Source of the DNA: Actinomycetes bacterium
Lineage (GTDB): Bacteria; Auribacterota; JAJCYG01
Direction of reading: 5' to 3'
Assembly (NCBI GenBank): GCA_029263055.1
Contig: JAJCYG010000065.1
Span: 11,458 to 75,457 of the forward strand
DNA: 64,000 nucleotides
In this document: positions 6,350-20,064 of the stretch, one piece after another
Layout of the letters: each line of letters starts with the position of its first letter
Position numbering within the stretch: the first letter of the stretch is position 1
Translations under genes and position numbers: made by a program
Notes under the pieces: model-generated
The model's database searches: none
Told to the model about the DNA's origin: nothing
Seen by the model: the letters and a program-made list of their open reading frames with translations, nothing else

Positions 6350-6530
6350 ATTTGCTCAGAGTGTATCAGAAAGCCAAAAATGTTCAAAATGGTATTTTTG
6401 CGTAGAAAGTGAACAAAAATGAGCGTGATTAAAAACGGGCACTTTTATAACAATTTCTAATAGAAGGGGATGGGAAAGTGAGAATTTGGCCTGCTATATG
6501 CAAATAATAGTTATGAAGCCGGAGGGTTGG

Positions 6531-7883
6531 ATGAAGAAGCAAGGAATAGTGATTTTGTTGGTCATTATGTTAGGAGTACCAGGACAGGTTAAGGCGGTTC
6601 AGTCCAACCATTTTAATGATTATTTAGATGTTGCGGCCTCTCGTTTGTCGACTTCTTCTTCAAGTCTTTTTGAGCAAACCCTTCTTGGATTTACTTATTT
6701 AGGACTGGGTGAGTGGGAAAAAGCAGAAGCACAAATCTTGATAGGAAAAGAAGTTGTTGAGAAAAATAAGAACTTGTTAACAAGCTTTAAACTTTGGTTG
6801 GCTCTGCTTTCATTTCAATTTGATTTTTTAACGGAACAAAATAAATACGGTTTGTTTGGCGAAAAACTCTGCTTAGATGTTTGTTCTCTTCCTACTTATA
6901 ATGATTTGCCTGTTATGGGAAAGAGAAAAGATATTTGGAATGTTGATTGGAGTTGTTTTGTTGCATTAGAAGATATTCGTTTTGGAATAGAAGTATTAGA
7001 TGTTGCCACTCAGCTAACTTTAAATTTAAAGAATAAAAAAACGTTTGAAGTAAAAAAACAAAAATTAATTCAAGCACTTCCATTGTTTGAGTCATTTCCT
7101 GAAAATAGTTTTTTTGTTTTTTCTTATTTAGATGATCAGTCTTCTGACATAGAAGATAAGCGCAAAAGCTATTTTTTTAATGTTTCTAATGGGCTTTACT
7201 TTGTGTCTGATCAAAGAAAAATAGCTATGCCTAAGCCTGGAAAAACTAAGAGAACTCTTGCTTACTTTGCTGGTTTAATGAGAGAAGAACAGTCAGAGAG
7301 GGCTATTGCTAAGTATGAAAAAGCTCGCCGATCGATAAATGGATTACGTCCCTTTTCTGTATGGAAAAAAGAAAATCAGCTTAAGATTTATGATCGAAGC
7401 CATCTTGCTTCATTGAATAAAAAAGAAGATTGGTTTTTTCCTGATCGTTTTAAGGATAAATTCTCTGATAAAGGATTAGCAGATATCTGTTTTGATTTTA
7501 TTAAAACATATTCTCATCCATTAAAATTACAGAAAACAGTGGTTGTAAAAGAAGAGTTAAATTCTCTGATTTTGGCAAAAATAGCTAAACGCCATCTTTT
7601 AACAGGAGAGTATAATAAAGCGGAAAGATGGGCTAAAAAATCTGTAGCTACAGATCAAGATCGTGATGCGGTTGCTTCATCATGGTTGATTTTGGGTAAA
7701 ATTTATCGTGATAAAGCGGACCATGCAAAGTCTGATTTTAAATTTGTATTAGCCGATCAATATCAAGAAAAGAGTGAGCATGCTTTTCAGACTGTGGCAC
7801 GCCACTACCCAACAGCCAGTGTGATTGATTCTAAAAGCTCGTTAAAACGAGTGGTTGAGATTATTCAAGGCCTCTACCAGTAA
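6531..7883 (+). CDS. Secreted hypothetical protein (signal peptide), AT-rich
   Basis: The start was moved to MKKQGIVILLVIMLGVPGQVKA, which has a good signal peptide and an SD GGAGGG upstream. The protein is ~450 aa with no recognisable family. Its composition is more AT-rich than the flanking genes. Confidence 0.45.
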   Translation: MKKQGIVILLVIMLGVPGQVKAVQSNHFNDYLDVAASRLSTSSSSLFEQTLLGFTYLGLGEWEKAEAQILIGKEVVEKNKNLLTSFKLWLALLSFQFDFLTEQNKYGLFGEKLCLDVCSLPTYNDLPVMGKRKDIWNVDWSCFVALEDIRFGIEVLDVATQLTLNLKNKKTFEVKKQKLIQALPLFESFPENSFFVFSYLDDQSSDIEDKRKSYFFNVSNGLYFVSDQRKIAMPKPGKTKRTLAYFAGLMREEQSERAIAKYEKARRSINGLRPFSVWKKENQLKIYDRSHLASLNKKEDWFFPDRFKDKFSDKGLADICFDFIKTYSHPLKLQKTVVVKEELNSLILAKIAKRHLLTGEYNKAERWAKKSVATDQDRDAVASSWLILGKIYRDKADHAKSDFKFVLADQYQEKSEHAFQTVARHYPTASVIDSKSSLKRVVEIIQGLYQ

Positions 7884-17835: not shown

Positions 17836-18762
17836 ATGGCTAAACAAGTATTTGATTCAATCCAAGATGAAGTGAAAGAGCTTAAGAAAGAGCGCAATGC
17901 ATTGATTGTGGCGCACAACTATCAGTTGCCAGAGGTTCAAGATGTGGCTGACTTTGTTGGAGATTCGCTTAATCTAGCTCGCTTTGCACAAAAGACAGAG
18001 GCAGAAGTGCTCGTGTTTTGTGGGGTTCACTTTATGGCTGAAACAGCCTCAATTTTATGCCCAGATAAAACAGTGTTGTTGCCTGATTTGGCTGCAGGTT
18101 GTTCGTTGGCAGCTATGGCTGCGCCTAAGCAAGTGATGAAGTGGCGCGAAGAGCATCCAGAGGGTGTGGTGGTTGCTTATGTTAATACTTCTGCTGAAGT
18201 CAAAGCTGTGAGTGACTATTGCTGTACCTCTTCAAATGCCGAACAAGTGGTCCGTGCCATTCCTGAAGATAAAGAGATTCTTTTTCTCCCTGATTTTTTT
18301 CTAGGTAATTTTGTGAAGCAAAAGACCGGACGCAATATTCATCTTTGGAAAGGGTTTTGCGGTACTCATGCCATTATTAGTAGTGAACATATTGATCAAT
18401 TAAAAGTAGAGAATCCAAAAGCAGAATTTATCATGCATCCTGAATGTGGGTGTTCCACCAAGTCGATGCCTTATGCGGATAAAATTTTATCAACTGAGGG
18501 AATGACTAATTACGTTCACGAATCAAAATCTGAAGAGTTTATTGTTGCTACTGAAACAGGGATTTTACACCGCATGCAAAAACAAAATCCTGAGAAAAAA
18601 TTTATTGCGGCAAGCGATGAAGCTGTGTGCGGCTACATGAAGCAAATCACCTTAGAAAAAGTTGTGACTGCTCTCGAACGATTAGAACATCGAATCCAAG
18701 TTCCAGATGAGATCGCCAAAAAAGCCAAACGCGCCATTGACCGCATGATGGAAATTACCTAG
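17836..18762 (+). CDS. nadA: Quinolinate synthase A
   Basis: The ~308 aa length, the VFCGVHFMAET motif and the CGC...HPEC cysteine ligand pattern are typical of NadA. Confidence 0.8.
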   Translation: MAKQVFDSIQDEVKELKKERNALIVAHNYQLPEVQDVADFVGDSLNLARFAQKTEAEVLVFCGVHFMAETASILCPDKTVLLPDLAAGCSLAAMAAPKQVMKWREEHPEGVVVAYVNTSAEVKAVSDYCCTSSNAEQVVRAIPEDKEILFLPDFFLGNFVKQKTGRNIHLWKGFCGTHAIISSEHIDQLKVENPKAEFIMHPECGCSTKSMPYADKILSTEGMTNYVHESKSEEFIVATETGILHRMQKQNPEKKFIAASDEAVCGYMKQITLEKVVTALERLEHRIQVPDEIAKKAKRAIDRMMEIT

Positions 18763-18774
18763 TCAGCAATACTC

Positions 18775-19004
18775 CGTGTTAAAGTGTGCCTCAAAGGGCC
18801 GTTCCATAAGTGACTTGCCGCCCGGCAACTCACTTACTCCACTCATATTCGCAGACACACCCAGATAAAATTGTCTTCTTAGGCAGGGTCTCCCTCCGGC
18901 TCCGCTAACGCTACGCCTACACGAGCCCCTGTCGGAAGCCAACTTTATCCGGGCCCCTGTCTACTCAGATGCCCTTTGATGCACACTTTAACACTGCGTT
19001 TGTT
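18775..19004. repeat. GC-rich ~230-bp structured element (copy L). It is closed by a 24-bp terminal stem (18775-18798 pairs with 18981-19004) and is ~85% identical to the reverse complement of copy R.
   Basis: The terminal stem GTGTTAAAGTGTGCCTCAAAGGGC pairs with GCCCTTTGATGCACACTTTAACAC. The internal sequence aligns to the reverse complement of 19845-20030. Confidence 0.75.
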
Positions 19005-19014
19005 GGTGTTTATT

Positions 19015-19716
19015 TTAAGGGTGGGGTGAAAGAATGACTTCCTTAGTTTTTTTGCTGATTCCGGACGTATCTTCTATTTTATTATAGATAATAGCGAAAA
19101 TATTTTTGCAGTGATCAGTGATTTCTTTTTTATTACACTTTGTTCTATTTAGTTTTATTTCTTCATTTCTTATTAATTCAGGTAGGTCTGGATCTTCTAC
19201 AAGTGTTTTATTATGAGTAATGCTTAAAAAATAATAATTTTTGTATCGAGTTGATATTCCATAAACTGGATCATTCCAATCAAATGTCCTTGATTCAAAT
19301 TGTAATGGTCTACTTGTTGTGATTCCTATTTTGTTTGTTATTTCAAAAAAAACGGGTTTTTCTTTTTCAAAATTTCCAACGTAAAAGAATGTTGGATCTT
19401 TGGGTGTGTAACCGCATTGTCTAAAGTTTTTCTCTAAATCTGAAGTTAACTCATCTCTAATGCTGTTTATTAAGTAAGCTGGATTGTCTATGTAGTGGAA
19501 TTTTTTATAATAGTCTTTATACCAGTCCTGTAGGTTTTGTTCGCTTAATGAGATACCAGCGAAACCTACTAGTGCGAAGTTATTGAAATTATATACTTTT
19601 ATTTGATTGTCTTGATATCTGCTTGGACAATCTTCAGGATGCTTTATATGGGTTAATCTTTTATCGCCTACGAAAACAATATGGTTTTGAATATAAGCTC
19701 CTAGAATTAAAGTCAT
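19015..19716 (-). CDS. Hypothetical protein (233 aa), AT-rich orphan ORF flanked by the inverted GC-rich elements
   Basis: It is a long ORF with a strong AT bias relative to its neighbours and belongs to no recognisable family. Its N-terminus MTLILGAYIQNHIVFVGDKRLT is faintly reminiscent of N-terminal-Thr (Ntn, HslV/proteasome-beta-like) hydrolases. Confidence 0.5.
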   Translation of the reverse strand: MTLILGAYIQNHIVFVGDKRLTHIKHPEDCPSRYQDNQIKVYNFNNFALVGFAGISLSEQNLQDWYKDYYKKFHYIDNPAYLINSIRDELTSDLEKNFRQCGYTPKDPTFFYVGNFEKEKPVFFEITNKIGITTSRPLQFESRTFDWNDPVYGISTRYKNYYFLSITHNKTLVEDPDLPELIRNEEIKLNRTKCNKKEITDHCKNIFAIIYNKIEDTSGISKKTKEVILSPHP

Positions 19717-19832
19717 TTGTTTCTCTTTATAAATAATTATACATGAGTAAAAGGCTCTTTATATAAAGGGTTTATAACAATGTTTTATAGTTGAATGGGG
19801 TGTGGTACAATTTGGGGCTTTAGCGGAGTTCG

Positions 19833-20045
19833 GGAGTCTTTGTGAAAAGGCACCGGAGCAGACAGGGGCCCAGGGAAAGTTGACTTCAGACAGGGGCTCG
19901 TGGAGGCGGAGCGTTAGCGAAGCCGGAAGGAGACCCTGCCTAAGAAGGCAACTTTTTCTGGGTGTGGCTGCGATGATGAGTGAGTCTACCGAGTTGCCGG
20001 GCGGCAAGTCGGTTAGGGAACGTCGTTTTCACAAAGACTCCTGAA
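19833..20045. repeat. GC-rich ~213-bp structured element (copy R), in inverted orientation relative to copy L. It is closed by a 15-17 bp perfect terminal stem (19833-19849 pairs with 20029-20045).
   Basis: GAGTCTTTGTGAAAA pairs with TTTTCACAAAGACTC. The internal sequence is ~85% identical to the reverse complement of copy L. Confidence 0.75.
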
Positions 20046-20064
20046 CGGAGCGTGGACAACTTAT

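Follow-up and report, generated by a model that had tools for sequence, protein, structure and literature searches.

Two inverted Y-shaped folding modules flank an ORFan gene in a foreign cassette between nadA and a cysteine desulfurase gene

The described systems closest to the locus reported here are the REPtrons and REPIN-RAYT elements, including TIRYT and class-3 Y1 loci, in which a small gene lies between inverted, GC-rich, self-complementary elements (PMC3337134, PMC6006769). The proteins of these systems have a PF01797 core in which an HUH motif is followed, 58-67 amino acids (aa) downstream, by a catalytic Tyr motif, and a 'CnGA foot' has been described for the class-3 Y1 proteins, mainly in Planctomycetes (PMC3337134, PMC6006769). 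Here we analyse a cassette of ~1.3 kb with a similar layout in a 64-kb stretch of DNA from a bacterium of the GTDB lineage Auribacterota (contig JAJCYG010000065.1, positions 11,458 to 75,457; hereafter the window, to which all coordinates refer). It contains one open reading frame (ORF) for a protein with no detectable relatives (the ORFan) and two inverted GC-rich elements of ~235 nucleotides (nt), A and B. Long helices formed by the ends of an element are also known from the RNase III stalks of ribosomal RNA (rRNA) precursors and 23S intervening sequences and from the hairpins of Correia elements. Integron attC sites are simple hairpins of 57-141 nt, present once per cassette, in one orientation, beside an integrase gene. 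Judged from its sequence, the module is a structured single-stranded element carried on a foreign cassette. Its parts and the genes on either side are the following.

17836..18762, plus strand: nadA, quinolinate synthase, left host flank (Pfam NadA, E = 6e-121)
18761..20061, no strand assigned: whole inserted cassette; imperfect inverted repeat traced outward to both edges by sequence and alignment
18766..19002, selected fold on the minus strand: element A; RNA fold -118.8 kcal/mol, z-score -10.4; covariance-model score 279.8 bits
19015..19716, minus strand: ORFan, 233 aa; 30% GC, 24% GC at third codon positions; intact frame
19717..19822, no strand assigned: AT-rich spacer with divergent promoter-like sites (consensus matches only)
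19741-19736, minus strand: TATAAT ahead of the ORFan (consensus match)
19757-19768, no strand assigned: perfect 12-nt palindrome CTTTATATAAAG in the spacer between the ORFan and element B
19784-19811, plus strand: TTTATA-16-TACAAT, called by a promoter scan, ending 12 nt ahead of element B
19823..20054, selected fold on the plus strand: element B; RNA fold -114.3 kcal/mol (19825-20050), z-score -8.9; covariance-model score 277 bits
20065..21228, plus strand: cysteine desulfurase-like class-V aminotransferase, right host flank (Pfam Aminotran_5, E = 1e-80)

The two elements are inverse-complement copies of each other, as the initial annotation of this DNA had claimed. Their arms, 18772-18977 and 19845-20050, are 80% complementary without gaps over 206 nt; blastn aligned the elements at 84.9% identity over 179 nt (E = 1e-50), and MAFFT gave a mean column identity of 87% over 237 columns. 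The longest identical runs between the arms measure 20, 19 and 14 nt. Each copy also has the terminal stem ascribed to it, formed by 18771-18799 with 18971-18999 in copy A (29 nt, 90%) and by 19828-19848 with 20026-20046 in copy B (21 nt, 95%), although the latter is longer than the 15-17 bp originally given. The described contrast between GC-rich copies and an AT-rich ORF was likewise confirmed, with 53% GC in element A and 58% in element B against 30% in the ORF and 39.5% in the window, and 11 of the 12 highest-GC 200-nt segments of the 64 kb fall in the two elements. Protein coding inside the elements was dropped as an explanation because the frame they share differs almost solely by amino-acid-changing substitutions; a spurious 80-aa frame inside element B gave no match as a protein query. 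The 7-mer TGGGGTG occurs on the plus strand just inside both elements (19022-19028 and 19796-19802), as a direct and not an inverted repeat, possibly by chance.

Folding and comparing the two copies, the check that had been proposed for them, gave a common Y-shaped structure that is conserved beyond the terminal stems. Its stem is the closing helix P1, in which 22 consensus pairs take up 24-25 nt on each side. From it branch two arms: P2, 114 nt long, is interrupted by several small internal loops and tipped by GUUA, and P3, 42 nt long, has a GGGC loop. In the consensus fold, the helices lie at the following positions.

18971-18994 with 18776-18800, minus strand: P1 of element A
18851-18964, minus strand: P2 of element A
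18801-18842, minus strand: P3 of element A
19828-19851 with 20022-20046, plus strand: P1 of element B
19858-19971, plus strand: P2 of element B
19980-20021, plus strand: P3 of element B

The copies differ at 57 positions, yet all 75 consensus pairs are standard in both of them (150 of 150 cells paired). Where the annotation had noticed at least one apparent compensatory change, we counted 14 pairs that had changed on both sides with pairing kept: ten in P1, another in the two pairs that extend P1 outward, two in P3 and a single one in P2. In five further pairs one base alone has changed, by one step, so that the pair is G.U in one copy and Watson-Crick in the other. When the partner columns were slid by 1-3 positions as a control, pairing stood at 36-46% and double changes at 0-2. 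The minimum-energy structure of copy A alone was matched by copy B at 76 of 81 pairs, while simulated random substitutions, matched in number and region, left 53.1 +/- 3.4 of the 81 pairs, with a maximum of 67 in 20,000 trials (p < 5e-5). This covariation comes from a single pairwise comparison, that of the two copies. Identity between them is ~55% in P1, 89% at paired positions of the core and 75% at unpaired ones. Near the tip of P2, two 3x3 internal loops place GNA opposite GRA; the G and A are kept and the middle base alone varies.

Both elements fold far more stably than shuffled sequences (RNA z-scores -8.7 to -10.4, with 0 of 200 shuffles as stable), and each does so preferentially on one strand. 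Element A reaches -118.8 kcal/mol on the minus strand versus -95.4 on the plus strand, and element B -114.3 kcal/mol on the plus strand versus -94.7 on the minus strand over 19825-20050 (-118 versus -95 over 19823-20054). Every wobble pair (11 of 11, at 9 distinct positions) is G.U when read on the G-rich strand; the opposite strand would have C.A mismatches instead. G.U makes up 7-8% of the pairs, and seven varying pairs are G.U in one copy and Watson-Crick in the other, five of them through one-step changes. The G-richness of element A runs opposite to the local GC skew and is therefore not a replication bias. Since the wobbles are G.U on one strand only, selection has acted on a single-stranded fold, and it keeps each module folded as a single strand, the minus strand for A and the plus strand for B. 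Selection on structure, as suggested in the annotation, is thus borne out by the preservation of all pairs, the 14 double changes and the one-strand wobbles. Compensatory pairs and a preference for one strand, the generic criterion for a structured RNA, are both seen in the elements, here in two sequences.

Given selected folds on the minus strand for A and on the plus strand for B, the functional forms point outward from the cassette and cannot share one transcript. The earlier idea that one copy acts as a 5' leader and the other as a 3' trailer, whichever strand is transcribed, needs correcting in this respect: element A does sit 3' of the ORFan and element B 5' of the desulfurase gene, on the plus strand, but the arrangement on one transcript does not stand. 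On such a transcript the two copies could form a long-range A::B duplex of -310 to -329 kcal/mol, stronger than the local folds. As the selected structure this duplex is contradicted by the closing helices, which pair solely within their own copy, and the local fold is therefore the maintained one.

The cassette is missing from related genomes. In five related lineages (L081/L082, L083/L084, L085, L092/L093 and L095), whose desulfurases are 72, 71, 66, 62 and 60% identical to that of the window, nadA and the desulfurase gene are separated by 1-46 bp, an empty site. The gene order S16, TrmD, L19, RNase HII, NadA, desulfurase, large tetratricopeptide-repeat protein and ATP-binding cassette transporter is kept in the first four; L095 is a short contig that shows the nadA-desulfurase junction alone. 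Because these syntenic relatives have the empty site, 18761-20061 is a lineage-specific foreign insertion placed exactly between the two genes, in line with the initial annotation, which had also named both flanking genes correctly by the Pfam matches given above. The outer limits of the repeat are 18761, within the nadA stop codon, and 20061, 3 nt upstream of the desulfurase ATG, and NadA ends in EIT* in the window versus EIV* or AIV* in the relatives. For these two reasons we consider that the cassette fills the entire gap between nadA and the desulfurase gene and provides nadA with its stop codon, the gene's own end having apparently been replaced by the insertion. The stop codon itself (TAG) is inside the outer end of the inverted repeat, in the stretch 18760-18765, next to a last residue that is T here and V in the relatives. 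Inspection of the sequence and of the relatives' junctions revealed no target-site duplication or flanking direct repeat at the cassette edges.

The ORFan lies in one of the two lowest-GC stretches of the window. From ~4 kb to 32 kb, every other minus-strand ORF that reaches 120 aa is nested in a longer plus-strand ORF; genes from 4 to 32 kb are nearly all on the plus strand, and the ORFan stands out by its orientation. At its composition, a 233-codon open frame has a chance of 3e-9 of arising at random, which argues that the ORFan is, or recently was, a gene. The cassette is a maintained one, its ORF being intact despite the AT-rich composition. The other very low-GC stretch (~26%) is at 6951-7200, inside a 465-aa ORF (6486-7883) with no NCBIfam match.

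Database searches with the ORFan protein returned little. Neither 5.8 billion clustered proteins nor 1.84 billion representatives, the latter searched in full with HMMER, yielded a match other than the ORFan itself, and there was none in Pfam, NCBIfam, PADLOC or PDB (Pfam at E <= 1 for the whole protein and at E <= 10 for residues 1-170). Its sole PHROGs match was phrog_22817, of unknown function, at E = 0.008. No transposase, recombinase, reverse transcriptase, RuvC nuclease or ToxN-like endoribonuclease domain was found in it with Pfam, PADLOC, PHROGs or NCBIfam. An AlphaFold2 model made without an alignment had a mean pLDDT (predicted local distance difference test score) of 31 and was unusable. 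Two leads were noticed, both weak and below database-level significance. The first is a possible Ntn hydrolase of the HslV or proteasome-beta type: residues 1-54 resemble residues 1-49 of E. coli HslV at a weak pairwise E = 0.01, with the landmarks MT at the start, VGD/AGD, K and GFAG in the alignment. There was no match to Pfam Proteasome, however, and none of the four weak PDB matches of the ORFan was to an HslV or proteasome chain. The second is 'HYIDNP' (residues 74-79), an isolated short match that resembles the catalytic Tyr motif of Y1 transposases. No H-x-H occurs anywhere in the protein, which hence has no HUH motif.

Compared with the REPtron and REPIN-RAYT systems, the cassette shares more than the position of its gene between inverted hairpins: here too the hairpin is kept while the sequence between conserved parts drifts, and the conserved tetranucleotide foot of those systems may have a counterpart beside the stem (PMC3337134, PMC6006769). 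The tetranucleotide 5' of the stem reads CGGA in element B, which fits CnGA, and CGCA in element A, which does not. On the other side of the comparison, the protein has no HUH or Y1 signature, no dispersed repeats are present in the window, and the modules are 235-nt structures of three helices, whereas REPs measure 20-40 nt and REPINs ~90 nt. The cassette resembles a REPtron in layout and fails the protein test that defines one.

Other systems match in part. As in RNase III stalks and Correia hairpins, a near-perfect helix formed by the ends encloses a conserved core, and the helix is free to change in sequence as long as it stays paired; unlike the rRNA stalks, the element lies outside an rRNA operon, and cleavage here would be a proposal only. 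With attC sites the modules have in common that structure is kept over sequence, that single-stranded folding is strand specific and that the cassette gene is a promoterless or orphan one, but they are two inverted, branched modules of 235 nt in a single cassette, with no integrase among the syntenic neighbours. Type III toxin-antitoxin loci, retron msr-msd and the guide RNAs of TnpB and IscB likewise belong to small cassettes, mobile or foreign, that pair a single protein gene with a strongly structured RNA beside it, which has a terminal helix. In contrast to these, the ORFan has no YxDD motif and no TnpB or RuvC match, there are no tandem direct repeats, and the copies are two and inverted instead of one. 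A retron was dropped as a candidate, as there is no reverse transcriptase and the order of the helices is wrong on the selected strand. Yeast GC clusters, double-hairpin elements and the repetitive hairpin-forming elements of sponges are also GC-rich, self-folding intergenic modules on an AT-rich background, but these organelle elements are short and multi-copy and are not paired around a gene.

Neither module could be assigned to a family, and no further copy was found. Searches of the whole window with Rfam 15 at gathering thresholds gave 0 matches, and at E <= 10 the region or the single elements gave chance-level matches alone (9-17 bits). The two best-conserved 18-20-mers have just two occurrences in the window, even with 3 mismatches. 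A covariance model built from the two copies found only those copies in the window and the relatives' loci and nothing real in 1.4 Mb of other loci. The exact 19-mer GGAGACCCTGCCTAAGAAG had 0 matches in genome contigs and 0 in metagenome contigs, while a 20-mer hairpin and a three-block pattern each had 0 matches in viral contigs; the whole cassette gave no blastn match among PLSDB plasmids or INPHARED phages. Six metagenome matches to the 20-mer hairpin (L086-L091) were set aside as chance, since these are GC-rich contigs that share merely 20-23 nt with it. These collection scans used exact seeds, which diverged copies would escape, and the search of the bacterium's own genome covered the 64-kb window. 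The module thus appears to belong to no described RNA family and to have no detectable relative.

Two resemblances to known RNAs were followed and rejected. The junction of element B (19972-19979) reads GAUGAUGA and gave sub-threshold matches to archaeal C/D-box small RNA models (E 0.6-9.5), while copy A reads GAAUAUGA at the same junction; the resemblance is probably due to chance, and a C/D-box kink-turn was dropped because the motif is in copy B only. A CsrB-like GGA decoy RNA was also dropped, with 10 GGA in element B versus ~7 expected from composition in a hand count.

We propose, with a probability of about one in two, that the two modules are structured RNA whose closing helix either is a stalk for RNase III-type processing or insulates the folding of the conserved core inside it, a core that would probably act with the ORFan. 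Among the alternatives raised by the initial annotation, two copies of an undescribed structured non-coding RNA fit best. The step from a folded single strand to RNA is suggested by the G.U share of 7-8%, the one-step changes between G.U and Watson-Crick pairs, the GNA/GRA loops, the large, branched and sequence-conserved core and the -10-like hexamers (TACAAT for B, a weaker TAAAAT for A), which in each copy stop 12-13 nt short of the point where homology begins. The spacer 19717-19822 would then act as a divergent promoter region, from which module RNA would be transcribed outward to both ends of the cassette. On the minus-strand side it would drive the ORFan and then element A on the same messenger RNA, or A may be made from a weak promoter of its own. 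On the plus-strand side, the promoter-like site at 19784-19811 would make element B and then the desulfurase operon, so that B would be the 5' end of the transcript that now drives the desulfurase and downstream genes, cut off from nadA by the insertion. The palindrome CTTTATATAAAG, together with a direct repeat CTCTTTATA present at 19723 and 19755 in the spacer, looks like an operator between divergent promoters. P1 is a candidate RNase III-type processing stem or folding insulator because its length would suffice for processing as double-stranded RNA and its sequence drifts freely; its role would be to free or shield the core, which is conserved in sequence and probably has the ORFan protein as its partner.

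Several observations weigh against this proposal. The promoter-like site of A is weak, with 3/6 in the -35 hexamer, and neither copy is followed by a U run. The evidence comes from two copies at one locus of one genome, so that the covariation amounts to one comparison. The insertion begins and ends exactly where the repeats do, as would be expected if they were the ends of a mobile DNA element. Finally, folding energy cannot separate RNA from single-stranded DNA, because DNA parameters favour the same strand (-60.5 versus -44.8 kcal/mol) and also give significant folds.

These last two points lead to the strongest rival, unlikely in our view but to be taken seriously, in which a mobile DNA element ends in the two modules, which would act on opposite strands as hairpins of single-stranded DNA and be processed by the ORFan protein, as in REPtrons, IS200/IS605 or the T- or Y-shaped terminal hairpins of rolling-hairpin replicons. 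Besides the reach of the inverted repeat to the exact insertion edges and the DNA-parameter folds, it can claim the REPtron-like layout of one gene between strand-specific inverted hairpins (PMC3337134, PMC6006769) and the CGGA directly 5' of the copy B stem. It has to contend with the CGCA foot of copy A and with a protein that contains no H-x-H, does not match Pfam Y1_Tnp (PF01797) and has no PDB match to a REP-associated transposase. A dispersed population of copies is missing from the 64-kb window and the relatives' loci, 235-nt modules with three helices and conserved internal loops exceed REP, REPIN or IS200 hairpins by far in size and complexity, and G.T pairs at 7-8% would be unusual for DNA hairpin sites. 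Quite unlikely, too, is that the cassette is an undescribed selfish element with Y-shaped self-folding ends (RNA, single-stranded DNA or both) and with the ORFan as a new type of protein that processes the ends or binds RNA and is not related to the HUH, DDE, serine or tyrosine recombinases, which would make the cassette REPtron- or OMEGA-like from different parts.

The remaining explanations carry less weight. Element B could be a cis-regulatory leader of the desulfurase operon, riboswitch-like or protein-binding, with A as a redundant copy, and it does lie on the coding strand, downstream of a promoter-like site and upstream of the desulfurase start codon. We nonetheless hold this to be improbable: the same gene in the five related lineages has no leader in its 1-46 bp spacer, Rfam gave no match even at E <= 10, the closed P1 leaves the start-codon region free with no obvious expression platform, and A has no gene downstream. 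Terminal inverted repeats of duplex DNA, whether of a MITE-like element (MITEs being miniature transposable elements with inverted repeats), of a composite transposon or of a segment inverted through recombination of its arms, would account for long inverted repeats around one gene in an inserted cassette. We give them little credence as well, since the termini are the most divergent part of the modules, each complementary solely within its own copy, and the strand-specific wobble pattern is not expected of a duplex DNA site. The MITE-like element of the initial annotation was not borne out, because terminal stems that are the least conserved part (~55%) are the opposite of transposase-recognised terminal repeats; target-site duplications are missing, and there were no further copies in the window, the relatives' loci or the exact-seed scans of three public collections. 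Nor did its invertible segment find support, as the ORFan has no transposase or recombinase domain, the neighbours are all conserved housekeeping genes without a recombinase, and the arms share no stretch of identity longer than 20 nt (the next longest are 19 and 14 nt), which is below the ~23-27 bp that efficient RecA recombination requires as a minimum. Least probable of all is a functionless, decayed local inverted duplication, which would fit the presence of two copies only at a single locus. The intact ORF in AT-rich sequence speaks against it, and it appears close to refuted by the covariation, with 75 consensus pairs intact despite 57 differences and the simulation at p < 5e-5.

Around the cassette, a few features of the host locus were recorded. 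A response-regulator pair lies between RNase HII and NadA in some relatives only. It comprises a minus-strand response regulator and an unannotated or HisKA-like gene (L081 7614-8886, L085 7560-8859, L092 1870-3178) and is missing from the window and from L083, a second variable spot of the conserved block. The order L31, RF1, Ffh, S16, TrmD, L19, RnhB presumably matches Chlamydia trachomatis CT022-CT029, which would fit the assumption of the initial annotation that the genome is a chlamydial one. In species-representative genomes, the best matches to NadA are at <=60% identity, in metagenome-assembled genomes of Elusimicrobiota, Chloroflexota and Gemmatimonadota, and the syntenic relatives reached through the desulfurase also have nadA; this hints at an old horizontal origin for the nadA of this clade. 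No transfer RNA, transfer-messenger RNA or Rfam family was detected across the 64 kb.

The reach of the finding is limited to one locus in one genome, with two copies. If the module is RNA, it would be a new large, branched and strongly structured bacterial RNA, carried on foreign DNA and tied to a protein without relatives, in a probably chlamydial and hence obligate intracellular lineage, a setting in which few mobile elements and non-coding RNAs have been charted. If it acts at the DNA level, mobility that depends on hairpins would no longer be confined to HUH enzymes. In both cases the locus is a clean natural experiment, in which a tight operon has received an insertion that seems to carry an outward promoter and insulating structures of its own.

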